DNA from: Candidatus Oxydemutatoraceae bacterium
GTDB taxonomy: Bacteria > Pseudomonadota > Gammaproteobacteria > Poriferisulfidales > Oxydemutatoraceae
Direction of reading: 5' to 3'
DNA: 64,000 nt
NCBI GenBank assembly: GCA_965237985.1
Contig: OZ250161.1
Coordinates: forward strand, 104,078-168,077
A program made the position numbers and the translations under genes. Shown piece after piece: positions 9,133-55,489 of the stretch. The notes under the pieces were generated by a model. That model was given only the letters and a program-made list of their open reading frames with translations. It was not told where the DNA came from and made no database searches. How positions within the stretch are numbered: position 1 is the stretch's first letter; each line of letters opens with the position of its first letter.

Positions 9133-9138
9133 GCATGA

Positions 9139-27678: not shown

Positions 27679-28182
27679 GTGAACCGGGAAATGCCGGGTA
27701 TTCGTGAAGTGGTTCTGTCACTGGCATGCGAGTTGCGCAGGCGACAGCTGCGTCTGGTGAGCGTCGAGTCCTGCACTGGTGGCTGGATCGCAAAGGCTTG
27801 CACGGATGTACCGGGAAGTTCGGAGTGGTTTGAGGGGGCACTGGTGGTTTACAGCGACCATGCCAAGCGGCAACTGTCAGGTGTCCGGGAAAAGACTTTG
27901 GCCAGAGAAGGCGCAGTCAGCAAAGAGGTGGCCGAGGAAATGGTAGAGGGCGCACTGCTACGGGTGAGCGCGGCGGATATTGCGGTTTCGGTCAGTGGAG
28001 TTGCTGGTCCGGGTGGTGGGACTTTGAAGAAACCGGTAGGGCTGGTTTGTTTCGCGTGGCAACAGCGGGGCAGGGCGATCAAGAGCAGCAGCGTACGCTT
28101 TTCCGGCGACCGCGAAGCAGTCAGAAGCAAGTCCGTCGTCACTGCCTTGTCTGGCGTGATGGAACTGCTGGTGCCTGGATGA
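27679..28182 (+). CDS. pncC: CinA C-terminal domain protein / nicotinamide-nucleotide amidohydrolase PncC
   Basis: CinA_C motifs [18 protein letters not shown]. About 165 aa. Confidence 0.75.
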
Positions 28183-28264
28183 TATTTGGCAGTTCAGCTA
28201 AAAAAGTTCAGTGCAAGAGGTCCCCGAAGAGACTATCGCCTGCAATCCAGTACCGTTTTTTCAT

Positions 28265-28612
28265 TCAACCGGATGCCTGTGTCGGGAAGCGATAGAAATT
28301 GCGGTTCAAATAATCAATCACTTCCTGGATTTGGGCATCATTCCAATCGATGTCGGGACTTGCGTGGCAACCGCGAATTTGTTTGACCAGGCCCTGGTAG
28401 CTCTGAACAATGCGGTCCCTTCTTGAATATAATAGCGAACCATCGCCTCCTGTCATCTGGATATGACAGGAAGTGCATTTTTCCTGGTAGTGAGCAGGTG
28501 CTTCGCTGGTTTCTTCGGAAGCCGAAAAATTGCCAGACAACAGCATCGGCCAAATGAGGCTGACGGCGAGTACACGGTGCCACTTGTTCGCGTTGTCGAC
28601 AGGACGTCTCAT
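28265..28612 (-). CDS. Small periplasmic monohaem c-type cytochrome (putative)
   Basis: N-terminal signal-like segment and a single CTSCH haem-binding motif. 115 aa. Confidence 0.5.
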   Translation of the reverse strand: MRRPVDNANKWHRVLAVSLIWPMLLSGNFSASEETSEAPAHYQEKCTSCHIQMTGGDGSLLYSRRDRIVQSYQGLVKQIRGCHASPDIDWNDAQIQEVIDYLNRNFYRFPTQASG

Positions 28613-28695
28613 GCCCGCTGATTATACTGCTTTGTGTGTGGGAAACAGATTACGGGGCCTGACTGCTTTTGCTGATTGGCTCGTCATGACCTTGG

Positions 28696-29250
28696 GTGTG
28701 TATTGTGCGTATTGATGCTGCCAACCTGATCTGGATCGATCTGGAAATGACCGGTCTTGACCCGGAAAACGATGCCATCCTGGAGATTTCCACGGCTGTC
28801 ACTGACGCGCAGTTGCGGGAAATGAAGCTTGGTCCCACGTTGCAAATCCACCAGTCCAAGAAAGTGCTTGGCAAAATGGATGAGTGGAACATCAGCCAGC
28901 ACGGTGCTTCGGGCCTGTTGAACAAGGTGCAGGAAAGCACATTGGAGTACGCGCAGGTAGAAACGGAGACCTTGCGTTTTCTAAAGCTTTGGGCAGTTCC
29001 TGGAAAGTCCCCCATGTGTGGTAAATCGATCTGTCAGGACCGCCGCTTTCTGGCTCGCCTGATGCCAGATTTGTGTGCGTTTTTTCACTACCGACACTTG
29101 GATGTCAGCACCTTGAGCGAACTGGCAAAGCGCTGGGCGCCGGAAGTGGAAAATGGCCTTGTGAAAGTTTCGACGCACCTGGCGCAGGATGACGTTCTTG
29201 CTGCCATCAAGCAACTCAAGCACTACCGTAAGCACTTGATGAAGTGTTGA
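28696..29250 (+). CDS. orn: Oligoribonuclease Orn
   Basis: [15 protein letters not shown]h exonuclease motif I. Size and conservation. Confidence 0.85.
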
Positions 29251-32916: not shown

Positions 32917-33696
32917 TCAACAGCGCTTTGGCAGCCATGTCCCTGTATTGCTTTGCATGGCGTTGAGAAGAGCGATGTACGTGAAATCCAGTGCTTTTTG
33001 TACAGCGGCTTCCAAAGGATTGGCGCAGGCCATGTACGTGGCAATCGCGCTTGCCAATGTGCAGCCACTGCCATGATAGGTGTGCCGGAGGCGGCGGCTG
33101 CGAAAAGTCCGTGTGGTTTTTTTTGTCTGGTACAGCCGATGAATCAATTCTTGCCGTGTGATTTTCACGCTGGTGACCAATATGGCGGTGCAACCAGAGT
33201 CGAGGAGGACCTGTGCTGCCATGTCGGCATTGTGGGTTCCTGGGGCCAGTGTCAGTGCTTCTTCGTAGTTGGGGGTCGCCAGGCATGCCATGGGCAACAA
33301 CTGCTTTTGCAAAGCCGCGATTCCAGTTGTAGTGTTGAGTGACTGGCCGGTTCCAGCATTGATGACCGGGTCGACGACTAAAGGTACAGGTGGAAATTCC
33401 CGCAAGACCTCGCTGACTGTTTTCGCATGCGGCCCCAGCATTCCAGTTTTGATCAGAGAGATTTTGAACTCTGAAAAAACCGTTTGAATTTGAGCCCGCA
33501 AATCGCGGGCACTTATGGCCTGCCAGGAAAGGACTGCGTTTCCGCTTTGTGTGGTGTTGCAGGCAAGTGCACAGACCGGATGTCCCCCGCAGGCGGAAAC
33601 CGTTTCTATGTCGGCCTGCAACCCGGCACCTCCGGTAGGATCGAATCCAGAAACGCATAGCACGACTGGTATTTTTCTGTTTTTTATTTTAACCAT
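32917..33696 (-). CDS. thiD: Hydroxymethylpyrimidine/phosphomethylpyrimidine kinase ThiD
   Basis: VVLCVSGFDPTGGAGLQADI N-terminus. PfkB-family kinase. 259 aa. Confidence 0.85.
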   Translation of the reverse strand: MVKIKNRKIPVVLCVSGFDPTGGAGLQADIETVSACGGHPVCALACNTTQSGNAVLSWQAISARDLRAQIQTVFSEFKISLIKTGMLGPHAKTVSEVLREFPPVPLVVDPVINAGTGQSLNTTTGIAALQKQLLPMACLATPNYEEALTLAPGTHNADMAAQVLLDSGCTAILVTSVKITRQELIHRLYQTKKTTRTFRSRRLRHTYHGSGCTLASAIATYMACANPLEAAVQKALDFTYIALLNAMQSNTGTWLPKRC

Positions 33697-33942
33697 GGCG
33701 ACAGTTTAATGAGTACGACGACGCATTGTAGAAAATAACGGCGGTGCGCAAGGAAGGGTTTTTAGTGGCGTGGTATGCGCAGTGTTCGGTTGTCGTGAAC
33801 GCATAGCACGACTGGTATTTTTCTGTTTTTTATTTTAACCATGGCGACAGTTTAATGAGTACGACGACGCATTGTAGAAAATAACGGCGGTGCGCAAGGA
33901 AGGGTTTTTAGTGGCGTGGTACGCGCAGTGTCCGGTTGTCGT
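33653..33942. repeat. 145-bp unit x2: thiD start codon, first 14 codons and ~100 bp of upstream leader duplicated in tandem
   Basis: AACGCATAGCACGACTGGTATTTTTCTGTTTTTTATTTTAACCATGGCGACAG... occurs at 33653 and 33798. Only two base differences between copies. Confidence 0.85.
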
Positions 33943-34173
33943 GTAGGAGAAGTTGGGAATATCCGGTTTTTGTTTCTGCTGACCTCACTCTGTATCAGGC
34001 ACTCTGTCAAACCAGGGAGCCAAGCAGCCATGCTGCTTCCTGACGAAGACTGCCGCCGGGTAGAATAGCTCGCCTTGCAGTGCAAAGTTTGAAATGAAAC
34101 TGTGTTTTGTAAGAATTGCCTGGCGTAGTTGTCTGTGGCGGAGGCGTTGGTTTTCCTGTTTGGAGTAGTCGAG

Positions 34174-38287: not shown

Positions 38288-39771
38288 TGGCTGTTCCAAT
38301 CCTGGCTGCTGGCAGAAATCGCGGCCTGGATCAGTACCTGCACCTTGCTCATGGTCTCGTTCCATTCGTTTTGTGGCTGGGAATCAAATACCAGTCCCGC
38401 GCCCGCCTGGGCATAAATTTTCTGGTCCTTGATGAGTGCTGTCCGAATGGCGATCGCGGCATCAATGTTGCCGGTCCACGAAATATAACCTACTGAGCCC
38501 GCATATACTGACCGTCTTACGGGTTCGAATTGTGCAATCAGTTCCATGGCACGAATTTTCGGCGCTCCGGTCACGGTTCCGGCTGGAAACGATGCTTTGA
38601 GAATATCTATGGCGGAGACTCCCTGCGCACATTGCCCGACAATGTTTGACACGACATGCATGACGTGGGAGTAGCGTTCTACTTCCATCATGCGTTCGAC
38701 AGTTATGCTGCCGGTTTTACATACCCGCCCCAGATCGTTGCGTCCCAGGTCCACCAGCATCAGATGTTCGGCCAGCTCCTTGGGGTCATTGAGCAGTTCA
38801 GTAGCCAGCAGGCGGTCTGTTTCCGGGACCTCGCTCCTCGGTCGGGTTCCTGCTATCGGGCGCAAAGTCAACAGGTTGTTTTCTTTGCGTATCAGGATTT
38901 CAGGAGAAGAACCGACCACGTGAAATTTTCCCAGGTCCAAGTAGTACATGTAGGGAGAAGGGTTCAGGTGGCGCAGGCTTCGGTAATAACTCAGTGGTGA
39001 GACAGTAAGACGGGCCTGCAGTCTTTGTGAAATCACTACCTGCATGAGGTCGCCGTCGGCAATGTATCGCAAAGCGTCTTCGACTGAAGATTTGTAAGCG
39101 GACTCCCCGGTCAGCGAAGAAAAATCATTTTCAGATATTGGCACGGGCAGCTCGTTCCGGGGAGGGCACGCCGGCACATCACGTAGCTGCTCTGCGATTC
39201 TTGCAATACGCAGCCTGGCTTTTTCGTAAGCCCCTTCCTCATCGGTGTCTGCACAGACAACAATGTAAAGCACATTGCGCAGTCTGTCCAAGACTACGAC
39301 TTCATTCGAAATCATCAACAGCGCGTCAGGAACATCCGGTTCATTTACTGCCGGCATAATGTTTGCCAGGCTGGGTTCTACCAAGCCGGAAATTTCATAG
39401 CCAAAGTAGCCTACCAGGCCACCGGCAAAGCGAGGTGCACCAGGCATGGTTGGCATTTTGCGCTTTGCCAAGAAGCATTCAAGGTATTCCAGCGGTGCGT
39501 CATGGGTGGCTTCAGTGCGAGTGTCATCCGTCAAGCAGGTCAGGCGATCGCGGTGTATTTCCAGCCGTTCGCTACAGGGCAAACCGATGATGGAGAAGCG
39601 TCCCCAGTATTCTTCCTGGCTGACGGATTCCAGAAGGTAACTGAACGGGGTATTTGCCAGTTTCAAATAAATCCCCAATGGCGTATCCAGATCCGCAGGC
39701 AATTCCCGGGCCAAGGGTATTTTGGCGTAGCCTTGCCGGGCGTAGCGTGTGTATTGCTGTTTAGTGATCAA
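38284..39771 (-). CDS. trpE: Anthranilate synthase component I TrpE
   Basis: 495 aa. Chorismate-binding domain FPAGTVTGAPKIRAMELI. Confidence 0.9.
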   Translation of the reverse strand: MITKQQYTRYARQGYAKIPLARELPADLDTPLGIYLKLANTPFSYLLESVSQEEYWGRFSIIGLPCSERLEIHRDRLTCLTDDTRTEATHDAPLEYLECFLAKRKMPTMPGAPRFAGGLVGYFGYEISGLVEPSLANIMPAVNEPDVPDALLMISNEVVVLDRLRNVLYIVVCADTDEEGAYEKARLRIARIAEQLRDVPACPPRNELPVPISENDFSSLTGESAYKSSVEDALRYIADGDLMQVVISQRLQARLTVSPLSYYRSLRHLNPSPYMYYLDLGKFHVVGSSPEILIRKENNLLTLRPIAGTRPRSEVPETDRLLATELLNDPKELAEHLMLVDLGRNDLGRVCKTGSITVERMMEVERYSHVMHVVSNIVGQCAQGVSAIDILKASFPAGTVTGAPKIRAMELIAQFEPVRRSVYAGSVGYISWTGNIDAAIAIRTALIKDQKIYAQAGAGLVFDSQPQNEWNETMSKVQVLIQAAISASSQDWNSQ

Positions 39772-39848
39772 GGTTGAGAATGAGAAAAATCAGGTGGAAA
39801 TTTTTGTGCCTGAGTCAGTAAATTTTCCGCAAGGTCGTCTCGTTGTAC

Positions 39849-40529
39849 TTATTTCGCTTTGTCCGTGGCAGACTGGATCATGACTTTCATTGCGTTTATG
39901 GTTTTCTGGTAATCGGAAGAACCAAAAATTGCTGAACCGGCGACGAAAGTGTCAGCTCCTGCACTTTTGGCGGCGGCAACGTTTTCGGCATTGACTCCCC
40001 CGTCGACCTGTAGGCGGATTTGTCGTCCGCTGGCATCAATGCGGCAGCGTGCCTGTTCCAGTTTCTGGTACGCCAGCGGGAGGAATGTTTGTCCACCAAA
40101 GCCTGGATTGACTGACATCACTAAAATCATGTCTACTTTGTCGAGGACGTAATCCAGGCAGGAAAGTCCGCTCGCCGGGTTGAAAGCCAAGCCGTTTTTA
40201 CAACCACAATTACGGATCAGTTGGAGGCTTCGGTCCACGTGGTCGGTTGCTTCCGGGTGGAAGCTGATGTAATCGGCGCCGGCTTCAGCAAAGGCGGTGA
40301 TTAAACCGTCCACCGGTCGGGTCATGAGATGCACATCGATCGGGGCGTTGATGCCGTAATTCCGCAGGGCGCTGCAGACCATGGGGCCAAAACTCAAGTT
40401 GGGAACATAATGATTGTCCATGACATCAAAATGCACCATGTCGGCACCGGCATCGAGAACAGCAGACACTTCTTCTCCGAGTCGGGCAAAGTCCGCGGCG
40501 AGTATGGAGGGACAGATTTGGTCTTTCAT
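39849..40529 (-). CDS. rpe: Ribulose-phosphate 3-epimerase Rpe
   Basis: [21 protein letters not shown]...[17 protein letters not shown]. 226 aa. Confidence 0.9.
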
Positions 40530-42975
40530 ATGCTGGGTGAGCCATTATCCACCGGTCGGGTCATGAGATGCACATCGATCGGGGCGTTGATGCCGTAATT
40601 CCGCAGGGTGCTGCAGACCATGGTGTCAACACTCAAGTTGGGAACAGAATGGGCACATCGTGTTGGTTCATGACATCAAAATGCACCACGTTTGCGCCGG
40701 CATCGAGAACAGCAGACACTTCTTCTCCGAGTCGGGCAAAGTCTGCGGCGAGTATGGAGGGACAGATTTGCTCTTTCATAAGCCGGGTGAGCCATTATCC
40801 ACGGCTCGGGTCATGAGATGCACATCGATCGGGGCGTTGATGCCGTAATTAAGGGCGCTGCAGACCATGGGGCCACAACTCAAGTTGGGAACATAATGAT
40901 TGTCCATGACATCAAAATGCACCATGTTTGCGCCGGCATCGAGAACAGCAGACACTTCTTCTCCGAGTCGGGCAAAGTCCGCGGCGAGCATGGAGGGGCA
41001 GATTTGCTCTTTCATATGCTGGGTGAGCCATTATCCACGGCTCGGGTCATGGGAGGCACATCTGGTCGGGGAGCTGATGCCGTAATTCCGCAGGGCGCTG
41101 CAGACCATGGGGCCACAACTCAAGTTGGGAACAGAACAGTTGTCCATGACATCAAAATGCATCCTGTCGCGTCGGCGCCGGCATCGAGAACAGCAGACAC
41201 TTCTTCTCCGAGTTGGGCAAAGTCCGCGGCGAGTATGGAGGGACAGATTTGCTCTTTCATATGCTGGGTGAGCCATTATCTACCGGTCGGGTCATGAGAT
41301 GCACATCGATCGGGGCGTTGATGCCGTAATCCCGCAGGGCGCTGCAGACCATGGGCTCAAAACTCAAGTTGGGAACAGAACAGTTGTCCATGACATCAAA
41401 ATGCACCATGTCGGCGCCGGCATCGAGAACAGCAGACACTTCTTCTCCGAGTCGGGCAAAGTCCGCGGCGAGTATGGAGGGACAGATTTGGTCTTTCATA
41501 TGCTGGGTGAGTAATTATCCACGGCTCGGGTCATGGGAGGCACATCTGGTCAGGGAGCTGATGCCGTAATTCCGCAGGGCGCTGCAGACCATGGGGCCAA
41601 AACTCAAGTTGGGAACATAATGATTGTCCATGACATCAAAATGCACCACGTTTGCGCCGGCATCGAGAACAGCAGACACTTCTTCTCCGAGTCGGGCAAA
41701 GTCTGCGGCGAGTATGGAGGGACAGATTTGCTCTTTCATAAGCCGGGTGAGCCATTATCCACGGCTCGGGTCATGAGATGCACATCGATCGGGGCGTTGA
41801 TGCCGTTATTCCATAGGGCTCTGCAGACCATGGGGCCAAAACTCAAGTTGGGAACATAATGATTGTCCATGACATCAAAACACACCATGTTTGCGCCGGC
41901 ATCGAGAACAGCAGACACTTCTTCTCCGAGTCGGGCAAAGTCCGCGGCGAGCATGGAGGGGCAGATTTGCTCTTTCATATGCTGGGTGAGCCATTATCCA
42001 CCGGTCGGGTCATGAGATGCACATCGATCGGGGCGTTGATGCCGTAATCCCGCAGGGCGCTGCAGACCATGGGCCCAAAACTCAAGTTGGGAACAGAACA
42101 GTTGTCCATGACATCAAAATACACCATGTCGGCGCCGGCATCGAGAACAGCAGACACTTCTTCTCCGAGTCGGGCAAAGTCTGCGGCGAGCATGGAGGGA
42201 CAGATTTGCTCTTCCATATGCTGGGTGAGCCATTATCCACGGCTCGGGTCATGGGAGGCACATCGATCGGGGCGTTGATGCCGTTATTCCATAGGGCGCT
42301 GCAGACCATGGGGCCAAAACTCAAGTTGGGAACATAATGATTGTCCATGACATCAAAATGCATCCTGTCGGCGCCGGCGCCGGCATCGAGAACAGCAGAC
42401 ACTTCTTCTCCGAGTCGGGCAAAGTCTGCGGCGAGCATGGAGGGACAGATTTGCTCTTTCATATGCTGGGTGAGCCATTATCCACGGGTCGGGTCATGAG
42501 AGGCACATCGATCGGGGCGTTGATGCCGTTATTCTGCAGGGTGCTGCAGACTGTGTGGGGTCAACACTCGGGTTGGGCGACAGAATGGGTACATCGTGCT
42601 GGTTCATGACATCAAAATGCATCCTGTCGCGTCGGCACCGGCATCGAGAACAGCAGACACTTCTTCTCCGAGTCGGGCAAAGTCCGCGGCGAGTATGGAG
42701 GGACAGATTTGCTCTTTCATATGCCGGGTGATCCATTATCCACGGCTCGGGTCATGGGAGGCACATCTGGTCGGGGCGTTGATGCCGTAATCCCGCAGGG
42801 CGCTGCAGACCATGGGGCCAAAACTCAAGTTGGGGATAGAATGGGTACATTGTGCTGGTTCATGACATCAAAATGCATCCTGTCGCGTCGGCGCCGGCAT
42901 CGAGAACAGCAGACACTTCTTCTCCGAGTCGGGCAAAGTCTGCGGGGGCAGAGAGGGACGGATTTGCTCTTTCAT
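40530..42975 (-). repeat. Tandem array of ten partial copies of the rpe 5' end (about 240 bp each; start codon plus first ~75 codons), head-to-tail directly upstream of intact rpe
   Basis: Minus-strand ATGs at 40779, 41015, 41276, 41499, 41739, 41978, 42217, 42462, 42720 and 42975 each begin MKEQ/DQICPS[IM][19 protein letters not shown]. Most end [13 protein letters not shown] with the TGA overlapping the next ATG. Confidence 0.9.
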
Positions 42976-43873
42976 TTTTGTTGTGTGTGGTCTGTCTCGC
43001 AGGGCTACGGTAATCCAGGCTGAGGGCGGGTTCGCTGACGACATGGTTTTGACTCAGTGTCGGGTCGGGGTGCAGATGTGGTCGGATATGTCCGACATGC
43101 CGGATAGAGGGTTCGTGTGGCGTGCGGCGATTATAGCGTGGGACAAGGAAACACTTTGATTTCTTATTTTGGTTTGTTGCGTCTGGTTCTGATGTTTTTG
43201 GGGTCGGCAATGGTGTTCTTGGCTCCAGACCCAGGGGCAGGGCTCATTCTGAAGTGGCCGGAGGTGTTTCTCACGTTGGTGGCACCGGTACTCGCCCCGC
43301 TTTTTTTTTAACACTTTTGCTGGATGCCTTGGTAACAAGATTGTTTTCAAGCGGCGCTTCCCGCGCGGAACGCCAGCGATTAAACCGTGTTCTGCTGGCT
43401 GATCTGGTGATTGCCATGCTGCTTCTGGTGGGGTGGGCCCCTTATTTCTCAGCTTTGGGTGATTTGTAGTGATGCAGCTGTCAGGAGCGTATCTTTTGTC
43501 GTGTCTGGAAAAACCAGAATGGCATGATGACAGTGACGGTCGGGAATACTCTTTGAAAAATACGTCACTGTAGCCCGACATCAGGATATGGGTGACATGG
43601 GACGTGTTTTGAACAGTCATGTCGGTGCTGCTCGGTCGCGAAAATCCAGTGATGCAGGAAGGTGTTTTTCCCGTTGGTACGGGATGCTTTTCAAGGGAGA
43701 GAGGCTTGTCAAAACGGTTAGGAAAAAGTTTATGCGGAAAGTCTCGAATGGCTGGTCCGGGAAACCGTTTGCCAGGGAGAACCAGCCGTCAGACAGCCTG
43801 AAAAACCAGATGTAGAAACGGTCGGGGAGGCCCTTCCGGTGGCGAAAAAAATCAGTCGCCGGTGCCGCCTGAT

Positions 43874-44851
43874 TCAGAGCTTGACAAGTATCCGACCGGT
43901 GACCTTGCCTTGCAGCAGCAGCTTTGCGGCCGGCAACACTGTATCGAGATCGATTTCCGAATGGCAGAACTGATCAAGATGGGTGGGATGCATGTCGTTG
44001 CCCAGCAAGGACCAGGTATGCTGGCGCAATGTCAGTGGGCAATTCGCCGAGCTCACCCCCAGCAGGTTGACGCCACGTAAAATAAACGGGTGTGTCGTCA
44101 AACACAGCATCGGGGATTGTGCAAGTCCGATGCTCACAACGTTGCCCCACGGTCTGGTGCATTTTACGGCGGTAGCCAGGGTGTCACCGCCCAGGTTGTC
44201 TACGGCTCCCGCCCAAAGAGATTTTCCAAGTAACTTTGGCGTCGCGTCGAGCGGCGGACGGATTCGTTTCGCGCCCAACCGGGTGAGAAATTCATGAGCC
44301 TGCGCTTTACGGGTGGCCGCCAGGCAGTCATAACCTTTTAAAGCCAGCAGATTCACTGCGAAACTTCCGACCCCACCACTGGCGCCCGTGACCAGGACTT
44401 CCCCTTGTTCGGGGGTTTGTCCATTTTTTTCCATTTTTCCAATGGCCAAGGCAGCAGTGAAGCCCGCTGTTCCGATCAACATGGCACTTCTGACATCCAG
44501 ACCTTCCGGCATTCCTACTACACATTCAGCTGGAAGCGTCGCGTAATCGGCAAAACCGCCATCGCGGGTTTCGCTGAGTCCGGTACCCTGTGCCAGCACC
44601 GCGTCACCGGCCCGGAAGTCTGCACTGTTGCTTTCGGTCACGAACCCGCCAAGGTCTATTCCCGCGGTCAGGGGGTAGTGGCGCAAAATCGTCGCTTCCC
44701 CCAAAACAGCTAAAGCATCCTTGTAATTGATCCCGGAATATGCCACCGAGATTTGCACTTCGTTTTTTCCTGGTGGTCGTAACGGGAGCTCTTCGATACG
44801 CGCGTTCCCCGCCCCCTCGTCATGGATACGCAACGCTCTGAAGCTGTTCAC
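43874..44851 (-). CDS. YhdH/AcuI-type NADPH-dependent oxidoreductase (MDR superfamily)
   Basis: GINYKDALA...LVTGASGGVGSFAVNLL. 325 aa. Confidence 0.75.
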   Translation of the reverse strand: MNSFRALRIHDEGAGNARIEELPLRPPGKNEVQISVAYSGINYKDALAVLGEATILRHYPLTAGIDLGGFVTESNSADFRAGDAVLAQGTGLSETRDGGFADYATLPAECVVGMPEGLDVRSAMLIGTAGFTAALAIGKMEKNGQTPEQGEVLVTGASGGVGSFAVNLLALKGYDCLAATRKAQAHEFLTRLGAKRIRPPLDATPKLLGKSLWAGAVDNLGGDTLATAVKCTRPWGNVVSIGLAQSPMLCLTTHPFILRGVNLLGVSSANCPLTLRQHTWSLLGNDMHPTHLDQFCHSEIDLDTVLPAAKLLLQGKVTGRILVKL

Positions 44852-46222: not shown

Positions 46223-46711
46223 TCAGTCGGCAAGCGTGGAGTCGAGCACCGCCACCGTCATGGCTTCGCGAAATGCGGCTAACTTGCGGTGCAGCGATTC
46301 CGAGTGCGTCGCCAGCAAAGCACAAGCGAACAGGGCGGCGTTTTCCGCCCCTGCCGGACCAATAGCAAAAGTCGCGACCGGTACACCTCTGGGCATCTGC
46401 ACAATCGAGCACAGGGCATCCACTCCCTGCAACTGGCCACCAGTAACGGGCACGCCAAGCACGGGAAGCGGCGTCAGCGAGGCAATCATGCCCGGCAAAT
46501 GTGCCGCGCCGCCGGCACCGGCAATGATACATGTCAAACCGCGTTCTTTTGCGCTTTTTGCATACTCATACATCAGTGTTGGTGTGCGGTGTGCCGACAC
46601 GATTTTCTTCTCGTAGGGAATGGCGAAGCTGTCCAGGCGTTCAGCGGCGTGTCTCATGACTGGCCAGTCATTTTTGCTACCCATGAGGAGTCCGACGACT
46701 GGTTCTTTCAT
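46223..46711 (-). CDS. purE: N5-carboxyaminoimidazole ribonucleotide mutase PurE
   Basis: [14 protein letters not shown]...[14 protein letters not shown]. Confidence 0.9.
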
Positions 46712-47159
46712 GATTTTTCCAGGTTCCGGTTAAATATGCAGGGAATGGTTGCGTTCCGGTTATTCTGCCACATCTTCCGGCTCAGGTTCAGGTACTGGTA
46801 GGGCAGGGTGCCGGTAAGGGTGCAGTGGCAACCAGTTTTTCCGTCCAGATTACGTGTCATTAGAAAACGACCGGATGCTCGCACACGATCGATCGGGGAG
46901 GCATGACGAAGTTCCAGCAGGAAATGCCTGAGCTAAAAAGCAAGCATCTCAAATGGGATAAAACTGGCATGATCAGGTTGCTCAGCACCGACAGAAAATT
47001 TGACACAGAGATTCTGTAGGTTTAAAATACAGGAACTGGCTGGGTTCGTGGGCATTAGTCGGTGTTGTTGTATAGCAGCGGAGGGACTGCTGGCGTGCGA
47101 ATTATTGAACGATGCGGGTGCGAGAAGTGGCTGTGAGTGGTCATTCACTCTTGGGTGCT

Positions 47160-47314
47160 GCTGTGAGAAAAACAGCTGTGGCAAGCTGTCCCGGGTATGG
47201 GGCTGATGGCCCATGTTTCAATCAAAGCCGATAAAGGCTGTTTTTCGGATTGCCGGAGCATGGTGGAGCGTTCCTTGGCCGTGTTATGCATCCATGAGTT
47301 GAAAACTGGAGGTA
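47160..47314 (+). promoter_or_regulatory. Core of the conserved leader shared by all five paralogs (GAGAAAAACAGCTGTG(G/A)CAAGCTGTCC...GGAGGTAATGATGGCG) with SD GGAGG
   Basis: Near-identical copies end at 47314, 51100, 56095, 57129 and 61213. Paralog D retains only this ~155-bp core. Confidence 0.4.
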
Positions 47315-49180
47315 ATGATGGCGAATGAAATTAGTGGTCTGTTTGGGAAGTATGAGAGCACGTATACCACAGTTCAGAGTGGGGGAGCTCGCGAGGAGAT
47401 GAATGCCAAGGGGCAACGAAAGACGTCACGATACGAGTTGCGTGGTTTTGATGCTGATGGTCTCCGAATCAGCAAGCGTGGCGGCAATTTTCTTGACCGT
47501 GTCGTATGTTGGTTTGAAGAGCGTGTTTTTTCGCTTACGAGAAGTGGAACCCGTTCCTCGCTACGGCAAAAATCCAGCAATCAATTTGCTTCTGATGTTG
47601 CCGGAGCACTTCGAGAAATAGACCCGGATCTGGTTGCTGAGGGTAGAGATATCAAGGACCATGATTTGATGAAACAAATAGAATCTGTTCGGGTGCGGGA
47701 TTTGCCACTTCGGTCAGGCTTTGTTCGCGGTATTCTTCAGGAGGTTGCGACCTTGGCGCGGGGAGCAGGGCATGGAGGTGATCTGTCAGAGTTGGCCATA
47801 AAGGCTTTTCCCGTACAGGATGAAGAGCCAGAGCAACCGGCTGCCGCCCTGGAAGTGGCAGCGGATGCCCCAGACAATCGCGAAGACGGAGGGGTGACCC
47901 ACCCGAATCTATCTTTGCCCGATGCACTCAAGGGTGGGCAATATCGGCAGGAAGGTGATGGATATCGTACAGTCAACCCTGGTGACCAGAAAGTGGAAGT
48001 GGATGGGCAAGTCAGACACAACAGAGACAAAGGAATGCCCGGGCGGGCTCAATCTCCGCAAGATGCCCCCTGGGGTGGTGGTGTAAGTTTGGAAGATAGT
48101 CATAGTGATGGAAGCTTGGAAGATGGTTGTAGTATGGGCTTCGATGGTGATTTTTTAGTTGGGAATTCTCGAGCAATGCCGACTGGTCCAGTTGATGGGC
48201 AATTTAGCTTTAAGGATCTGAGTGAAGAAGCATTGCTCAAGGTGCTCCGCACCCCGGTGATGTCTAAAATAGTTATCCCAGAGCTGAATGCTCAGAATTT
48301 TTTTGAGAAGGAAGAGCGCTCTGCAGAGAGTGAAGCGGCAGCTGGAGAAATTGGCCGTTTTGTGACTACCCTAATTGTTGGTGGTTTTGGTCCTGTATAT
48401 GTACAAGAAGTTTTGGATAAACACCTGGATGAGGTGAGACAACTTAATCAGCAACAGGACAAACAGCCTAATGGGAAAGCGGAGCAAGCCAAAGCACTGA
48501 ATAAAGTAGTTGACTCACTCTTAACCATTGATGAGTTTATGATTGACGCGAGGCAGACCGTCCTAGAAGGAGCTAGCCGCTATCATCAGAAGGGAATAAC
48601 TGTCGAGCAGCAGGGGGAGGAAGGAGGTATGCCCGGCGCACACCAATTTTTTGCTACTCAGCAAGTGATGCAGAATTGGCCTTTTCCTTCTAATCCATTT
48701 GCGGAGGAATTTAGCTTTACGGATCTGGGGGATAACGAATTTCTTGCACAACTCGGCGAACACGTGAAGTCTGAAATAGTTGTCCCAGAGCTGCAAAGTC
48801 AGAATTTTTGGAAGGATGGGCATGGGGTAAATGAGAATAAAGCGAAGATCGTTGATGGAATCTCCGGGGCGGTGGCTGGTGAGATTGCTGTCGTTTCTCA
48901 AAGTGTTGAACAGATAAAACAGACTGCGAATGAGGCACTGGGAGTATTAAAACTGTCTGTTAAAACTGATGATACAGACCCGCCGTCTGATGAGCAACTG
49001 CAAGCCAAGGCGCTGAAGAGCGTAGTTCAACGATACCAAGCAGCGGATACTGAAGGCCGTTTGAAGGGGGTCGTCGTGCGGGAACTTGGCCATCATTTGG
49101 CACCACCAGACGGTGTGCGAGGTAAAAAGGAAGTGGGTGTAGTCGACGAAGACCTTCTTCCTGATGCTGGTTCTAGGTGA
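47315..49180 (+). CDS. Paralog A of the unknown repeat-protein family (621 aa); its 3' part degenerates into out-of-frame module fragments up to about 49940, where a truncated IS sits
   Basis: Conserved N-terminus MMANEISGLFGKY...RKTSRYELRGFD...ISKRGGNFLDRVVCWFE. Two F-S-F-x-D-L...PV-x-S-x-I-V-x-PEL modules. Further modules continue in other frames (49177..49437). Confidence 0.65.
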   Translation: MMANEISGLFGKYESTYTTVQSGGAREEMNAKGQRKTSRYELRGFDADGLRISKRGGNFLDRVVCWFEERVFSLTRSGTRSSLRQKSSNQFASDVAGALREIDPDLVAEGRDIKDHDLMKQIESVRVRDLPLRSGFVRGILQEVATLARGAGHGGDLSELAIKAFPVQDEEPEQPAAALEVAADAPDNREDGGVTHPNLSLPDALKGGQYRQEGDGYRTVNPGDQKVEVDGQVRHNRDKGMPGRAQSPQDAPWGGGVSLEDSHSDGSLEDGCSMGFDGDFLVGNSRAMPTGPVDGQFSFKDLSEEALLKVLRTPVMSKIVIPELNAQNFFEKEERSAESEAAAGEIGRFVTTLIVGGFGPVYVQEVLDKHLDEVRQLNQQQDKQPNGKAEQAKALNKVVDSLLTIDEFMIDARQTVLEGASRYHQKGITVEQQGEEGGMPGAHQFFATQQVMQNWPFPSNPFAEEFSFTDLGDNEFLAQLGEHVKSEIVVPELQSQNFWKDGHGVNENKAKIVDGISGAVAGEIAVVSQSVEQIKQTANEALGVLKLSVKTDDTDPPSDEQLQAKALKSVVQRYQAADTEGRLKGVVVRELGHHLAPPDGVRGKKEVGVVDEDLLPDAGSR

Positions 49181-49944
49181 GAAGTCCATCGGCAACTTTG
49201 GCGGATCTGAGCAATGAACGATTGTTTGAGAGACTCAGCGAACCGGTGAAGTCTGAAATGGTTATCCCGAAGCTGAAGGATCGGAATTATTGGGCGGAGG
49301 GTACACGTGATGAGGAAACGCGGGGAAAGATGGTTGATAGCATTGTCGATGAAGTGACTGAAAAGTTTGTTGCTGCTTTGGGAGATTTTCAAGCTCTAAG
49401 AGTTACTGCGAATGAAAAACTGGGATTATTAAATTAAGAATGAATATTGATGAACGAGACCCGCCTTCTGATGTGAAACTCCAAGCCGTGGCACTGGAGA
49501 CCGTCGTAAAAGAAGCTGCTGGCAACGACCAGCTGAACGAGGCCGTAACGATGATAATTAACCATCGTCTTAGGGAACCGGAACAAGACAATCCTGAAGA
49601 GAAAAATTTCGCTATCTAGGCAGCACCACAATACACTACGCCAGGCATGCAGCAAGCTGATGAAGTTCGTGCTACCCACCAAGGACGGAATGATGAGCAA
49701 TTATCTTTTCAAGAAATGTCTGCCAAAGGGTTTTTAAAAAGGCTCAGTGAGCATGTAGAAGTCCATTATGTTACTCCTGCACTTTAGGGGGTTGGTTATG
49801 GTTCGGAAAGGGAACGGATGAAAAAAGTAATGACGGTGAACGCAACTGTCTGGTTTGTCGTGAATATAAAGAATCGTCAGATTGCTGACATCCAGGCGCG
49901 AGCACAGGAAAGCTACAATGCAAAAGCCCGTTTCTACGATGCAA

Positions 49945-50528
49945 TATGAGAATTTCCTCTGGCGAATTCATTCTCACCATGATGAACTCTAAAGTGCTTC
50001 TTATAACCAAAATCTACTAAACCATTATACCCACGCCAGCCATCAGAATGAATAACACTATCTATACTTGTTTTACCTCTAATTATCTTGGTTAAAGTCG
50101 CTGCAGTGCAATCCGGAACAATCTCAGTATAAACTTTATCACCGCGTTTTAATAAACCAAATACTTTGGTTTTACCTTTGGCGCCACGACCACGCACACC
50201 TTTGACTCTTTTTGCCCCAAAGTAAGATTCATCAACTTCAATCTGTCCCACTACAATCTGTCCCACTACAATCTGTCCCACTAATAGGGCAGATTAGTTG
50301 GTTGAATCTCTGGCAACCTGCTTGCGAATTGCCTTTAAATATTGATTAATAGTTTGTCTACTTAACTTTGTTAATTATTGGATTTGAACGGCGTTCAAAT
50401 CCAAAGAAAAATAGCGAATAATTTCTCTAAATTTATGCTCAGGAATTCTTGAACGAATTACATATTTGTTTTTCATTGTCATAACAATACTTATCATGTT
50501 TTTAAACATGCTTAACTTGTCATGACCC
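49945..50528. mobile_element. 5'-truncated second copy of the IS1016-like element (missing ~185 bp of one end) carrying an internal 15-bp x3 repeat
   Basis: Colinear and near-identical to 3048-3604, ending in the same terminal repeat (GCTTAACTTGTCATGACCC). CAATCTGTCCCACTA is present three times at 50239-50283 versus once in copy 1. Confidence 0.75.
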
Positions 50529-51100
50529 CCGGTTAAATATGCAGGGAATGGTTGCGTTCCGGTTATTCTGCCACATCTTCCGGCTCAGGTTCAGGTACTG
50601 GTAGGGTAGGGTGCCGGTAAGGGTGCAGTGGCAACCAGTTTTTCCGTCCAGATTACGTGTCATTAGAAAACGACCGAATGCTCGCACACGATCGATCGGG
50701 GGGGCATGACGAAGTTCCAGCAGGAAATGCCTGAGCTAAAAAGCAAGCATCTCAAATGGGATAAAACTGGCATGCTCAGGTTGCTCAGCACCGACAGAAA
50801 ATTTGACACAGAGATTCTGTAGGTTTAGAATACAGGGACTGGCTGGGTTCGCGGCGGTGGTTCGTGGGCATTAGTCGGTGTTGTTGTATAGCAGCGGAGG
50901 GACTGCTGGCGTGCGAATTATTGAACGATGCGGGTGCGAGAAGTGGCTGTGAGAAAAACAGCTGTGACAAGCTGTCCCGGGTATGGGGCTGATGGCCCAT
51001 GTTTCAATCAAAGCCGATAAAGGCTGTTTTTCGGATTGCCGGAGCATGGTGGAGCGTTCCTTGGCCGTGTTATGCATCCATGAGTTGAAAACTGGAGGTA

Positions 51101-54100
51101 ATGATGGCGAGTAAAATTGGTGGTCTGTTTGGGAAGTATTCGGGCACGTATGCCACAAGTGGTCGGGGTGGTGTGGGGCGCGAGGTGCTGGATGCCAAGG
51201 GGCAACGAAAAACGTCACGATACGAGTTGCGTGGTTTTGATGATAATGTTCCCCGAATCAGCAAGCGTGGCGGCAATTTTCTTGACCGTGTCGTATGTTG
51301 GCTTGAAGACCGTGTTTTTTCGCTTACGAGAAGTGGGAAATCTCCCTCGCTACGGCAAAAATCCAGCTATCAATTTGCTTATGATGTTGGTGAAGCACTT
51401 CTGGAAATAGACCCGAATCTGGGTGCTGAGGGTGGAAATGTCGACACACATGAGCTGGTGCGACGAATAGAATCTGTTCGGGTGCGGGATTTGTCACTTC
51501 GGTCAGGCTTTGTTCGCGATATTCTTCAGGAGGTTGCGACCTTGGCGCGGGAAGCAGATCATGGAGACACGCTGCCAGAGTTGGCCAGAAACGCTTTTCC
51601 CGTACAGAATCCTGTACGGGATGAAGACCCAGAGCAACCGGCTGCCGACCCGGAAGCGGGTGCCCCAGGCAATAATCACGAAGACGAAGAGGCGTTCCAG
51701 CAGGTTCTACCTCCTCCAGATGCACCCGTGGGTAGGGAAAATCGGCAGGAAGGTGGTGAAGATGTAGCCCCCCCTGATAGACCAGTTGAGCTTAATCAAG
51801 AAGTGGCGCCTCAGCTTGTTGCTAGACCAGCTGAGGCGCTATTTAACTTTACGGGTCTGAGTGAAGAAGAATTGTTCGACAAACTCCGCGACCCGGTGAG
51901 GTCTAAAATGGTTAAACCATTGCTGGATCAGCGGAATTTTTGGAAGGATGGGGACTATGAAGAGAAAAACAAGGCAGCTGATGCTATGGTCCATTTGGTG
52001 TCTGCCAAACTTGTTGGGGGTTTTGGTGGTTGTGAAAACGTACAAAAAGTTATGAATAATCACCTGGGTACTTTGAGGAATTTTGATATTCCAGAGGACC
52101 AGCGGACTGATGGGCAACTGCAAACAGAGGCACTGAATATCACAGTTCAGACATTCTCAGAAAATGAGGACGCTCTTGAGAGTACGTATCGGATCGTCGT
52201 AGAGGGAATTGGTAATTATACAGGTAGAAAAGAAGGCGTTTTTCTTGGCGCGGAAAATGTCGAGCAGCAGCCTATTGTTCACCCGGAAATGGGTGTCCCA
52301 GGCAATGGTCGCGGAGACGAAGAGCTGCCCCACCCGGTTCTACCTCCTCCCAATGTATTCGCCGCGCGGGGGGGATATCGGCAGCAGGAAGGTGGTGCAT
52401 ATGTTGCAGTCCAGCGTGATGGACCAGTTGCGCCTCATCAAGAAATGCAGATTCAGCCTGCTGCTGATCCAGTTGAGGAGAAATTTAGCTTTACGAATCT
52501 GAATGATGAACAATTGTTCGACAAACTCAACGACCCGGTGAAGTCTAAAATAGTTAACCCATTGCTGGAAGATCGGGATTTTTGGGAGGGTGGGTACAAT
52601 GAAGAGAAAGGCAAAGTAGTTGATGAGATTGTCCGTTCGGTGTCTGCCCGGCTTGTTGCTGTTTTGGGAAATCATGAACAGGTGAAACTTGATGCGAATG
52701 ACAAACTGGAAGTTTTGACGTTTTATGATGATAAAACTGATAAGCTGACTGATATGCAACTGCAAAGAGGGGCACTGGGTGTCGTAGTTCAAGAACACAT
52801 GGAAAAGGATGCAGAGCAGACGAAGCGGATCGTCATGGCGGGAATTAACCGTTATTTGGGTCAAGGCGTTCCTCTTGGCGTGGAAAATGTCGAGCAGCCG
52901 CCTTTTGCTGGTCCAGTTGAGGCGCCATTTAGCTTTGCGGATCTGGATGATGGACAATTGTTCGACAAATTACGCGCCCCGGTGATGTCTAAAATAGTTA
53001 ACCCATTGCTGGCCGAACAGGGTTTTTTGAAGGGTAGGTACAGTGACGAGGAACAAAAGGTAGTTGATAGGATTGTCCGTCTTGTGTCTATCCGGCTTGT
53101 TACTTCTTTTGGAAATTATAATGAGGTACGAGATGCTGCGAATAAAAACCTGGATACTTTGAGAGAACAAGACCAGGTGGGGCAGACTGATGCGCAACTG
53201 CAAACCTGGGCGCTGGAGCTCGTGGCTGTAGAATACGACGAAGAAAAGGCTGCAGGTCAAGCGATGCAGGTCGTCACACAGGAAATTAGTCGTCATGGCG
53301 CTCATGGGAGGGAGAAAGTGGATATGCACCCCGGCCCCAAGTCTACTGCACCTCCTGAAGATGTGGCGCAGGTTCAGCTTGCTGCTGATTCAGTTAGGGG
53401 GGTATTTAGCTTTATGGGTCTGGAAAATGAAGAATTTTATAGCAGACTCAGCGAACCGGTGAAGTCTAAAATAGTTGCCCCAGAGCTGAGAGAGCAGGAT
53501 TTTTTGCAGGATGGGGCAGATGAGAAGACAGTGGATATCGTTAGGTGGATTTCTAGGACGGTGGCTGGTGAGATTGTTGCCACTTCTGGAGGTATTGGAG
53601 AGGTAAAACAGGCTGCGAATGAAGCACTGGAATTATATAGAGTTGCTGTTGATGAAAATAACCCGCTGTCTGATGAGCAACTGCAATCCAGGGTGCTGGA
53701 GAACGTAGTTGAACAATACCAAGGAAAAGGGGCTGATGTAGTAGGCAGGTTGAAGGAGACCGTCGCGACGGAACTTGTCTATCATTTGAACAAAGCAAAG
53801 AAACCAAGCGCGCCAGTTGAAGAGCAGAAAGAGGTGGCGGCTGATCGGCCGGCAAAACCACAATACGCTATGCCAGGCGTGCAAGCTGAAGGAGTTCATG
53901 CTGCCCAACAAAGAGCTCTTGATGAGCAATTACCTTTTCAACAAATGTCTTCCGAAGGGTTTTTGAAAAGGCTCAGTGAGCAGGTAGAAGCCGAATATGT
54001 GCTTCCTGTACTTGGTGCTATGGAGAGGCAGGATGGTCCGGAAAAGGACAAGATGAAAGAAATAATGACGGTGAACGCAACTGTCTGGTTTGTCGCGAGT

Positions 54101-54532
54101 ATTAAGGGAGGTAAGACTGATATAATCAAGCAGGGAGCACAGGAAAGCTACAATGTAAAAGCCACTTTCTATGGACCTGAAGTTCAGGGGGGCGAGATTC
54201 AAAACGAAGTACTGAAGAATTTGTGTGTTGATGGTTTGACGGGTAGGGAGAAAGAAAAGCTGTATAAGATAGCTGGAGATAACACTTTGATTCAAGCTGG
54301 TCTGGGGAGGGATGATGATGTGTATATTGGAAAGGTCATTTTGGATAGAATAGCGGGCTATTTGGAAGTGGAAGCCCGGCGCCTCCCCGCCCACGGATCA
54401 GCTGTGGAGCACCAGCATGGTAACAACATTATCGACCCTAACAAAGAGGCTGTTGCTGGTTCTCAATCTATCGTGCCTGAGCCTGATGATTTTAGCCAGC
54501 CGGTTGGACCCACCCGTTCCGGTAGGTCGTAA
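51101..54532 (+). CDS. Paralog B, the only apparently intact member (1143 aa): conserved N-domain, four to five ~150-aa modules, distinct C-terminal domain
   Basis: Uninterrupted ORF. Modules begin FNFTGLSEEELFDKLRDPVRSKMVKPLL, FSFTNLNDEQLFDKLNDPVKSKIVNPLL, FSFADLDDGQLFDKLRAPVMSKIVNPLL and FSFMGLENEEFYSRLSEPVKSKIVAPEL. Confidence 0.7.
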   Translation: MMASKIGGLFGKYSGTYATSGRGGVGREVLDAKGQRKTSRYELRGFDDNVPRISKRGGNFLDRVVCWLEDRVFSLTRSGKSPSLRQKSSYQFAYDVGEALLEIDPNLGAEGGNVDTHELVRRIESVRVRDLSLRSGFVRDILQEVATLAREADHGDTLPELARNAFPVQNPVRDEDPEQPAADPEAGAPGNNHEDEEAFQQVLPPPDAPVGRENRQEGGEDVAPPDRPVELNQEVAPQLVARPAEALFNFTGLSEEELFDKLRDPVRSKMVKPLLDQRNFWKDGDYEEKNKAADAMVHLVSAKLVGGFGGCENVQKVMNNHLGTLRNFDIPEDQRTDGQLQTEALNITVQTFSENEDALESTYRIVVEGIGNYTGRKEGVFLGAENVEQQPIVHPEMGVPGNGRGDEELPHPVLPPPNVFAARGGYRQQEGGAYVAVQRDGPVAPHQEMQIQPAADPVEEKFSFTNLNDEQLFDKLNDPVKSKIVNPLLEDRDFWEGGYNEEKGKVVDEIVRSVSARLVAVLGNHEQVKLDANDKLEVLTFYDDKTDKLTDMQLQRGALGVVVQEHMEKDAEQTKRIVMAGINRYLGQGVPLGVENVEQPPFAGPVEAPFSFADLDDGQLFDKLRAPVMSKIVNPLLAEQGFLKGRYSDEEQKVVDRIVRLVSIRLVTSFGNYNEVRDAANKNLDTLREQDQVGQTDAQLQTWALELVAVEYDEEKAAGQAMQVVTQEISRHGAHGREKVDMHPGPKSTAPPEDVAQVQLAADSVRGVFSFMGLENEEFYSRLSEPVKSKIVAPELREQDFLQDGADEKTVDIVRWISRTVAGEIVATSGGIGEVKQAANEALELYRVAVDENNPLSDEQLQSRVLENVVEQYQGKGADVVGRLKETVATELVYHLNKAKKPSAPVEEQKEVAADRPAKPQYAMPGVQAEGVHAAQQRALDEQLPFQQMSSEGFLKRLSEQVEAEYVLPVLGAMERQDGPEKDKMKEIMTVNATVWFVASIKGGKTDIIKQGAQESYNVKATFYGPEVQGGEIQNEVLKNLCVDGLTGREKEKLYKIAGDNTLIQAGLGRDDDVYIGKVILDRIAGYLEVEARRLPAHGSAVEHQHGNNIIDPNKEAVAGSQSIVPEPDDFSQPVGPTRSGRS

Positions 54533-55279
54533 CGTTCATGAGACCGTGCCGGTGCCGCGGAAAATGTTCCTGTTTTCGAGTCAGGACAACATGGAGGAGT
54601 TATTACTGACCAACAGAAGGACCAATGATCGGAGATTTTATGACTGATTTGGGTGGGGGATCCGTCAGAGAATGCCTTCGTGCTGTTGCCATTGAAAAGG
54701 GCGTGGTGGCAGGCTACGCAAACGTAGCTCTGGATATTGATACCCCGGGGTATTAAAGTGAAAGCTACGTTTGATGGGCTCTGCGTCTCAAGAATGCCGG
54801 GTGCAGAATCTCGTTACGTTGATGTTGGAACACATCGCATTGATGTTGGAGACCATTACATTGGTGTTTGACACTTGCACTTAGCAGAGCGATTCATACC
54901 CACAACGATCTTGCAGATGCGAGAAGCCCTGTTGACTGGGGCGGTGCAGCAGAGCGAGAACAAGTCACCGGACGAGCTGTTGAGAGCTTTGGTGTTGAAT
55001 TTTGCACGAGTCTTAAGAGCGGCAGCTTAAGCCATGGTAAATGGGTTTGGCTGACGTTGTCTTGATTTCAAGCTCAGGATCGGCGGCCAGCTTGTCAGTC
55101 AGGTAAGCGTCTGTTGACGGGTTTGAGCATTGTTCCTGCGATAAAATTCGTAAAAACCTCCAGGAATGGTGTGGTCGAACGGTGATTTTAGCCAGCTGTC
55201 GGTTTGCGGTGTATTTATCGGACCACCATCAGAAAATCTGGCGTCAGGCACCCGATGAAACTTTTTCACCCAACACCGG

Positions 55280-55489
55280 TTACTCCGTGTGGAGTATCGT
55301 TCCCCGATTGCTTTCTCCCCGTTCAGACTCTGAACATTGTTTCCGCGGCCTTAGTGTTGGTGTGCGGTGTGCCGACACGATTTTCTTCTCGTAGGGAATG
55401 GCGAAGCTGTCCAGGCGTTCAGCGGCGTGTCTCATGACTGGCCAGTCATTTTTGCTACCCATGAGGAGTCCGACGACTGGTTCTTTCAT
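55280..55489 (-). pseudogene. Duplicated 5' fragment of purE (first 46 codons, then divergence)
   Basis: [46 protein letters not shown] is identical to PurE. Part of a segmental duplication that carries the paralog leader. Confidence 0.7.

Follow-up and report, generated by a model that had tools for sequence, protein, structure and literature searches.

The DNA analysed here, a 64,000-nucleotide stretch of contig OZ250161.1 from a Candidatus Oxydemutatoraceae bacterium (hereafter, the window), carries on its minus strand the gene for ribulose-phosphate 3-epimerase, rpe, together with ten truncated copies of the 5' end of the same gene. The truncated units are arranged head-to-tail at 40530-42975 and the intact rpe lies downstream of them at 39849-40529. 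Tandem Repeats Finder (TRF) reports a single array at 40309-42975 (period 239, 10.9 copies, 88% matches), which together with an alignment of the units confirms the ten 5' fragments and the intact gene in tandem that a first-pass annotation of the sequence had described. A two-unit period of 484 obtains a slightly higher TRF score.

The intact gene encodes a protein of 226 aa and its first 221 nt constitute the eleventh, proximal copy of the repeat. The product matches the TIGR01163 equivalog profile with 296 bits (cut-off 212.6) over profile positions 2-211 of 211 and is thus a full-length ribulose-phosphate 3-epimerase. Two proteins in the protein collection (P0001 and P0124) are identical to proteins of the window; P0001 is identical to the window Rpe and has PF00834 on record. 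All ten upstream units stop after codon 74 and consequently do not cover the (beta/alpha)8 barrel; unit u4, for instance, matches TIGR01163 only at profile positions 2-71 of 211 with 90 bits, which is under the cut-off.

Numbered from the distal end, units u1 to u10 start at 42975, 42720, 42462, 42217, 41978, 41739, 41499, 41260, 41015 and 40779 and measure 255, 258, 245, 239, 239, 240, 239, 245, 236 and 250 bp, respectively. The start codons listed in the first-pass annotation hold with one exception: the ATG at 41276 is part of the linker that closes the unit before, and the true start is 41260, with which the unit lengths become 236-258 bp in place of 223-261 bp. The distal u1 (42721-42975) is frameshifted, with an open reading frame (ORF) of 35 codons, and is preceded directly by unique sequence (...CACACACAACAAAA, also given as ...GACCACACACAACAAAA); it had been correctly noted that only this most distal copy has a different upstream sequence. 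Unit u2 (42463-42720) is likewise frameshifted, with a 38-codon ORF and variants of +5 and +12 nt. The next unit, u3 (42218-42462), is in frame and contains a duplicated 6-nt stretch (GCCGGCGCCGAC); at its junction, which has the sequence ATATGG, the ORF continues into u4, giving 126 codons. Intact 80-codon ORFs are present in u4 (41979-42217; 97% identity to u7), u5 (41740-41978; 96% identity to u9) and u7 (41261-41499; 96% identity to the intact rpe), those of u4 and u5 having a terminal ATGA overlap, while u6 (41500-41739) has a +1 frameshift close to its 3' end and a 74-codon ORF. Unit u8 (41016-41260) is frameshifted, with a 46-codon ORF, u9 (40780-41015) has a 3-nt in-frame deletion and a 79-codon ORF with a terminal ATGA overlap, and u10 (40530-40779), which adjoins the intact rpe, contains an 11-nt internal duplication. 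A unique spacer (42976-43873) separates the array from an upstream alcohol-dehydrogenase-like gene (43874-44851, assigned by Pfam), and by alignment it is orthologous to the region upstream of the single-copy rpe of relatives.

Each unit consists of rpe nt 1-221, ending in ...CCGGTGGA, and an 18-nt linker at its 3' end, after which the next ATG follows; the linker TAATGGCTCACCCAGCAT can be read directly at 40530-40547 of the minus strand. The junction GTGGA|TAATGGCTCACCC(A/G)GC(A/T)T|ATG is constant in 10 of 10 units, with unique flanks on either side, and in the intact copy it is CGGTTTAATCACC that comes after GTGGA. The linker is not obviously equal to the sequence now present upstream of the array in the window. 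Its best match is the rpe leader of relatives, which reads TGGCTCA(AG)CC(ACA)CAGCA in locus L082, where 18 of 5000 shuffled linkers score equally well; against the leader of locus L083 the corresponding count is 186 of 5000. The rpe codons 3' of the breakpoint were tested as another source and do not appear to have supplied the linker, the match being weaker (271 of 5000 shuffles versus 18 of 5000 for the relatives' leader). Because the linker matches the relatives' rpe leader better than this other source, we read the unit, with moderate confidence, as a residue of the leader joined to the first 221 nt of the coding sequence (CDS), which would be the same layout as that of the carA array described below.

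No Shine-Dalgarno motif is present in the 18-nt linker. The joining of GTGGA to TAAT creates a GATAAT 14 nt upstream of each ATG, and a promoter scan of 39500-43900 returned no sigma-70-like site and no -35 element at this junction GATAAT, nor did a terminator scan of the same interval find an excess of terminators. When units of rpe and carA were folded as single-stranded DNA, no unusual structure of a kind that could promote slippage emerged (z = +0.84 and -1.56). The stop-start overlap is a consequence of the junction sequence, with ATGA or TTATGA at 9 of the 10 junctions; the exception is the ATATGG between u3 and u4.

Decay of the fragments and exchange between them

The first-pass annotation had each unit ending in a TGA that overlaps the next ATG. 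This is true of the motif at the nine junctions, whereas an uninterrupted ORF of 79-80 codons that ends in such an overlap is found only in u4, u5, u7 and u9 (4/10). The internal frameshifts that had been noticed in some copies are those of u1, u2, u6, u8 and u10, all with an early stop, and u3 has lost its TGA, so that the frame or the stop is gone in six of the ten units. Relative to the intact copy, 53 distinct substitution variants occur across the ten units, distributed over codon positions 1, 2 and 3 as 20:17:16 and divided into 13 synonymous and 40 non-synonymous changes. Comparison of the intact copy with three orthologues over the same 221 nt gives 7:1:14, 6:2:15 and 7:1:13. The fragments evolve as decaying pseudogenes, and only the proximal copy is under selection. 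Their indels are slippage-like: the 6-nt stretch GCCGAC is duplicated, as is the 11-nt ATTATGTTCCC, whose copies have later diverged, and there are +1 and -3 changes. The ORF of u10 stops at 40633, ~100 nt 5' of the rpe ATG, which means that no translational coupling to rpe is preserved.

Pairwise identity between the units ranges from 79 to 97%, the distal u1 and u2 being the most diverged (79-89%). No two units are identical: each is marked by one or more substitutions or indels of its own, which allow the copies to be told apart and show that an assembler did not produce them as identical duplicates. The variation is mosaic, in that the same variant blocks reappear in different combinations. 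All four combinations were observed in 317 of 630 informative site pairs in a four-gamete test, and the Hudson-Kaplan minimum (Rm) is 12 exchanges within 239 bp. At codon 3, the ancestral GAC is present in u7, in the intact rpe and in the orthologues, and GAG in the other nine units. On a larger scale, the block u4-u5-u6 resembles u7-u9-u10. Adenine mutagenesis of the kind caused by diversity-generating retroelements was considered and rejected, as only 12 of the 53 variants start from an A in the intact copy; no reverse transcriptase domain was found among 30 window ORFs scanned against Pfam, a scan that was not exhaustive of the ORFs.

A single expressed copy beside tandem partial copies with mosaic blocks and evident exchange is also what would be expected if the fragments served as silent cassettes of the vls or pilS type, from which segmental gene conversion brings diversity into the expressed rpe, and the ancestral codon 3 common to u7 and the intact gene would fit such a role. 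We find this explanation hardly conceivable, since the target would be a cytoplasmic housekeeping enzyme and no surface antigen, the variant blocks disrupt a conserved Rpe motif and five units are frameshifted. Moreover, the N-terminal 74 residues of the intact Rpe are more conserved relative to those of relatives than is the remainder of the protein, and carA, trpE and an insertion sequence (IS) have arrays built in the same way.

Gene-boundary arrays in the window and in related genomes

Four further arrays lie across gene boundaries in the window. Upstream of the intact carA (16569-17702), eight fragments of its 5' end form a plus-strand array at 14573-16788 with a period of 246 (TRF and profile search), in which each unit comprises 22 nt of leader, including AGGAG, and 224 nt of CDS. 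The 3' array of mutS, at 24541-25240 on the minus strand (TRF and Pfam), contains three copies of a unit made up of the terminal ~196 nt of the gene and ~40 nt of downstream sequence, with the intact gene (25045-27630) first and with copies 2 and 3 identical to each other; the MutS ORF is full length (861 aa, domains I-V). The 5' end of thiD is duplicated at 33652-33943, also on the minus strand, as two copies with a period of 146 (TRF), each composed of ~100 nt of upstream sequence and the first 45 nt of the CDS. Finally, a 1228-bp IS (HTH_29 orfA and rve_3) is present as two inverted copies, 58553-60759 and 62575-63802, that are 98.5% identical. Its first 487 nt, which cover the left terminus and the helix-turn-helix orfA, occur three times in the first copy (58553-60018, plus strand; TRF) and once in the second (62575-63802). 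Since the three units are 99-100% identical and the second IS copy has the segment only once, this duplication is very recent. The unit begins exactly at the IS terminus TGTAGAAG, and self-insertion followed by recombination, not random duplication, is suggested as its origin. The carA, rpe, mutS, thiD and IS arrays are separate repeat families, each derived from its own gene, and the microhomology at array junctions is 0-5 nt.

Some additional features of these loci may be recorded here. In the carA leader (14580-14610), which is copied in each unit, AGGAG can pair with GCCTCCTG at codons 3-5 in the minimum-free-energy hairpin, and this predicted structure could be a translational control element. 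The upstream part of the thiD unit includes a promoter-like pair, TTGCGC...TACAAT. Between greA and mutS, a large hypothetical ORF of the window contains in-frame 111-bp repeats (22868-23213), and in-frame 96-bp repeats lie inside large hypothetical ORFs between the same two genes in L085 (13811-13987 and 15921-16220), the carA locus of the genome to which L082 belongs; the coding strand of these ORFs, in both the window and L085, is very A-rich.

The rpe locus was compared with four related loci (L081, L082, L083 and L084), which were reached through an Rpe that is 85% identical (P0005 and its cluster). L081, L083 and L084 belong to one sample, with coverages of 19x, 67x (a circular contig of 2,997,607 bp) and 13x, respectively, while L082 is from another sample (58x, a circular contig of 1,918,571 bp). 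The gene order purE-purK-alcohol dehydrogenase gene-rpe-trpE-G-D-C is common to the window and to all four loci, and each of the four relatives has only one rpe 5' end, set between orthologous flanks; the array is therefore young and lineage-specific. A single-copy rpe with the same flanks had been put forward in the first-pass annotation as grounds for doubting the array. That observation was indeed made in four relatives, and it bears on the youth of the array and not on its authenticity, because three of these relatives themselves carry equivalent arrays at trpE and trpC.

The trpE 5' arrays have a unit of 152 bp and 10.8 copies in L081 (8741-10345), about 10.8 in L083 (8808-10449) and 6.8 in L084 (7242-8268). 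The trpC 3' arrays have a unit of 279-280 bp and number five copies in L081 (13903-15316), three in L083 (13950-14783) and three in L084 (11826-12659). Among these three loci, which represent strains of a sister species, the flanks are 98-99% identical. L082, which is ~90% identical to L083, has neither the trpE nor the trpC array; a rubredoxin gene of L082 carries a 3' array of 3.1 copies with a 105-bp unit, and carA has a single 5' end at L085. In more distant relatives (CarA 66-69% identical, GC content 60-65%), the 21 kb examined at the L086 locus (CarA 69% identical, GC content 65%) contain three arrays at gene boundaries (6711-6974, 7826-8022 and 8545-9531). One of the three is a 323-bp, 3.1-copy array at the 3' end of an M23 peptidase gene, from which gene calling produced two additional genes of 108 aa; no such arrays are present in L087 and L169, whose gene order is that of L086. 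The arrays are young, occur at different genes in different species and shift in copy number between strains.

Three observations concern the annotation and gene content of these relatives. The trpE pseudo-units have an internal deletion of ~30 nt relative to the intact trpE. In L082 the gene caller gave the Rpe at 8001-8942 a spurious N-terminal extension of 87 residues (313 aa), the conserved GTG start being at 8262. A 246-aa glutamine-amidotransferase gene 3' of trpC is present twice in L083 (14842-15582 and 16155-16681) and in L084 (12718-13458 and 14046-14786) but only once in L082, so that larger duplications, of whole genes, are seen in this lineage too.

With these comparisons available, an expansion of a single rpe 5' end by assembly or sequencing error appears very remote. 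The absence of the exact junction from the metagenome contigs of the Joint Genome Institute (JGI) would be expected of such an artefact, which would however produce identical copies, and the units are 79-97% identical with private variants and indels; their higher-order and mosaic structure is coherent, and arrays of this class also appear in the independent assemblies of relatives (13-67x, with two circular contigs).

A regulatory or adaptive contingency device, in which array length, decoy starts, ATGA coupling or junction promoters would tune rpe and copy number would act as a switch, is in our view highly improbable. The start context of the true gene is repeated in every unit, GATAAT stands 14 nt upstream of each ATG, the ATGA overlap is kept in four units and the analogous trpE array varies in copy number between strains, all of which such a device could account for. 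However, the fragments are neutral, with frame or stop lost in 6/10, and coupling is broken at u10; the promoter scan was negative and no -35 element accompanies the GATAAT. In addition, equivalent arrays lie behind genes as well, a position in which decoy starts can have no effect, and a single rpe 5' end suffices in the relatives. Nothing points to a dedicated function of the rpe array.

The abundance of such arrays was assessed against a control set of rpe neighbourhoods taken from 160 other bacteria (1.33 Mb) using the same TRF settings. The window has six arrays with a period of at least 100 bp in 64 kb, five of which lie across a gene boundary, while the controls yielded three arrays with a period of at least 70 bp, none of more than 2.9 copies. 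The density of arrays with a period of at least 70 bp in the window is ~40 times that of the control loci, and close relatives have one or two arrays per ~16 kb. The proposal that the rpe and carA arrays are instances of one phenomenon is upheld by the six window arrays, by arrays of the same kind in relatives and by their near-absence in the controls. Two narrower suggestions did not survive: a mechanism specific to gene starts or to housekeeping genes is contradicted by the existence of 3' arrays and by the involvement of an IS, and a unit of ~240 bp is not a mechanistic signature, as the unit size over all arrays extends from 72 to 487 bp. The idea of a shared mechanism is thus supported in a broader and more mundane form.

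The 3' arrays are those of mutS in the window, trpC and the rubredoxin gene in close relatives and the M23 peptidase gene in a distant relative. The intact gene stands after the 5' arrays and before the 3' arrays. All five arrays internal to an ORF have periods divisible by 3 (45, 111, 39/75, 96 and 96), as against 5 of the 11 that span a gene boundary. The boundary-spanning duplications are probably tolerated because one copy of the gene stays intact.

As to the wider setting, window proteins are at most about 72% identical to those of any named organism. A protein-based scan of the JGI metagenomes gave nothing above 72% identity, and the loci that it returned were reused as controls; a scan of the Genome Taxonomy Database gave nothing closer than 71% identity among the matches listed. 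An Rfam scan of the window detected two tRNAs and nothing else. An apparent integrated element (1097-6424, GC content 46-47%) lies beside a tRNA gene (1097-1185, minus strand) and encodes a Fic-domain protein (1778-2851) and two tyrosine-recombinase ORFs, and the 633-aa tyrosine-recombinase ORF at 3624-5525 also matches NikA-like and HicB domains. At 27679-29015, cinA is followed by an opposite-strand cytochrome c-like ORF and lepA. In L086, L087 and L169 cinA is followed by recA-recX-alaS (about 17.7-20 kb), and recA is not at this conserved position in the window. The region 46500-63400 contains four or five paralogous genes without a Pfam match (47315-49180, 51101-54532, 56096-56659, 57130-58368 and 61214-62236), which have common conserved upstream blocks of ~500 nt and internal modules of ~440-640 nt and a GC content of 45-48%, below that of the rest of the window.

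A proposed origin of the rpe array

Most likely, the rpe array is a genuine and evolutionarily young gene-fragment expansion, not a designed regulatory device, which arose by duplication, a selective filter and unequal exchange or slippage. The founding event would have been a tandem duplication of ~240 bp with breakpoints in the rpe leader and after codon 74, tolerated because it spanned the start codon and thus left a complete rpe downstream. Expansion to ten fragments may have proceeded by unequal sister-strand exchange or replication slippage; the pattern of the repeats shows that multi-unit blocks were duplicated in its course and that units exchanged segments time and again. The fragments have drifted, gathering the substitutions and small slippage-type indels now seen in them. 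The process is lineage-wide, acting on gene starts and gene ends alike and changing copy number between close strains. The filter that we propose would allow duplications internal to a gene to survive only when in frame and those that span a start or a stop to survive at any length, and the lineage would have either a high rate or a high retention of short tandem duplications. The rpe gene is likely to be transcribed through ~2.4 kb of decoy starts, or else from an unrecognised internal promoter, and each fragment likely offers the ribosome the same start context, devoid of a Shine-Dalgarno motif, as that of the real rpe.

Several points weigh against this explanation. An origin of the linker from the relatives' leader needs several internal deletions, with 18 and 186 of 5000 shuffles matching the L082 and L083 leaders equally well. 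An exact search of the JGI metagenomes for the rpe junction gave 0 matches, and the sequence surveyed from the clade amounts to only ~170 kb. The explanation does not account for the lineage's proneness to such arrays, and MutS is full length. The non-coding part of the unit is also small, at 22/246 in carA, 18/239 in rpe and 7/152 in trpE, and the mean non-coding share of ten arrays is ~0.26, compared with 0.5 expected for randomly placed breakpoints. This hints at a non-random breakpoint process that a simple filter does not predict: units with promoters or terminators may be unable to expand, or breakpoints may cluster near transcript ends.

The latter possibility leads to a different founding step, in which a breakpoint-specific process tied to transcription or RNA seeds the duplications near the ends of transcripts. 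Candidates include replication-transcription conflicts at promoter- or terminator-proximal RNA polymerase, R-loops and reverse transcription of transcript ends. The boundary location would then derive from the origin of the mutations and not from selection alone, and later unequal exchange would be compatible with it. We consider this process, the main rival for the founding step, unlikely. It agrees with a non-coding share that stays below 10% for the largest of the 5' arrays, namely the three on carA, rpe and trpE, with the share of 2.5-18% in three of four 3' arrays and with the mean of ~0.26 over ten, and also with the minus-strand position of rpe, mutS and thiD, which by GC skew is probably head-on to replication. 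On the other hand, the sample is small, the carA and IS arrays are on the opposite strand, the bias is not seen in low-copy arrays (thiD 101/146, rubredoxin 56/105, M23 38/72), no reverse transcriptase was found among the 30 window ORFs scanned, and the same bias is equally expected if units bearing promoters or terminators cannot expand. A slim chance likewise attaches to a lineage-specific, possibly enzymatic or conflict-driven process that seeds short tandem duplications preferentially at transcript ends and in which copy number modulates transcription or translation. If true, essential genes would be bordered by minisatellites that evolve fast, and these would give rise to heritable and rapidly reversible variation in expression at a level not recognised before.

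Significance and comparison with known systems

The arrays are of interest because non-functional repeats are normally purged from bacterial genomes, and it is rare for kilobase-scale arrays of gene fragments to stand before or behind core genes, as they do at rpe, carA, trpE, trpC and mutS. More unusual still is their recurrence at different genes in sister species and their variation between co-occurring strains. If the pattern is genome-wide, the lineage would offer a natural experiment on the rates of short duplication, unequal exchange and pseudogene decay, and could reveal a feature of replication or repair by which other bacteria keep such events in check. The arrays matter in practice as well, since gene callers yield spurious short ORFs and N-terminally extended proteins at such loci (the 313-aa Rpe in L082 is an example) and short-read assemblies would collapse or break at the arrays.

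The literature searched contained no account of fragment arrays at gene boundaries as a trait of a whole lineage. The genome of Nitrosomonas europaea (Chain and colleagues, 2003) reportedly contains silent tandem copies of gene fragments beside intact genes; that organism belongs to a different class, the Betaproteobacteria. The Borg extrachromosomal elements reportedly carry perfect tandem repeats (Schoelmerich and colleagues, 2023) and resemble the present lineage in their lineage-specific wealth of fast-evolving tandem repeats, in and between genes. Borg units, however, are short, mostly perfect and often in-frame within ORFs, and they are not copies of a gene terminus beside the intact gene.

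Collisions between replication and transcription reportedly cause duplications and deletions in transcription units as well as promoter mutations (Sankar and colleagues, Nature, 2016). Such mutagenesis is a possible source of short promoter-anchored duplications, but the events are single ones in a reporter and not natural arrays of 3-11 copies. Silent-cassette loci for antigenic variation, such as vls of Borrelia and pilS of Neisseria, share with the rpe locus an expressed copy flanked by tandem partial copies with mosaic differences. In contrast to them, the arrays described here affect housekeeping enzymes and an IS, keep their start codons, contain frameshifts and evolve neutrally, with no sign of variation in the expressed copy.

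The mycobacterial interspersed repetitive units (MIRUs) are reportedly tandem units of 40-100 bp in operon spacers, with small ORFs that overlap the stop and start codons of their neighbours (Supply and colleagues, 1997). The similarity to these and other variable-number tandem repeats lies in the intergenic tandem units, the strain-variable copy number and the small stop-start ORFs laid out along the direction of transcription. MIRUs are nevertheless a dispersed family with one shared sequence, whereas each array here derives from the end of the adjacent gene and no sequence is common to the arrays.

Classical bacterial duplication-amplification, as developed by the Roth and Andersson laboratories, begins with an illegitimate joining that is followed by unequal homologous exchange or slippage. 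The arrays share with it a founding join with little or no homology, a copy number that goes up and down, exchange between copies and short-term instability. The classical amplification units measure kilobases to hundreds of kilobases, include whole genes and are kept by selection for dosage, being otherwise lost fast. Those described here, unlike them, are gene ends of 72-487 bp that provide no dosage, have reached up to 20% divergence and occupy many loci in one lineage.

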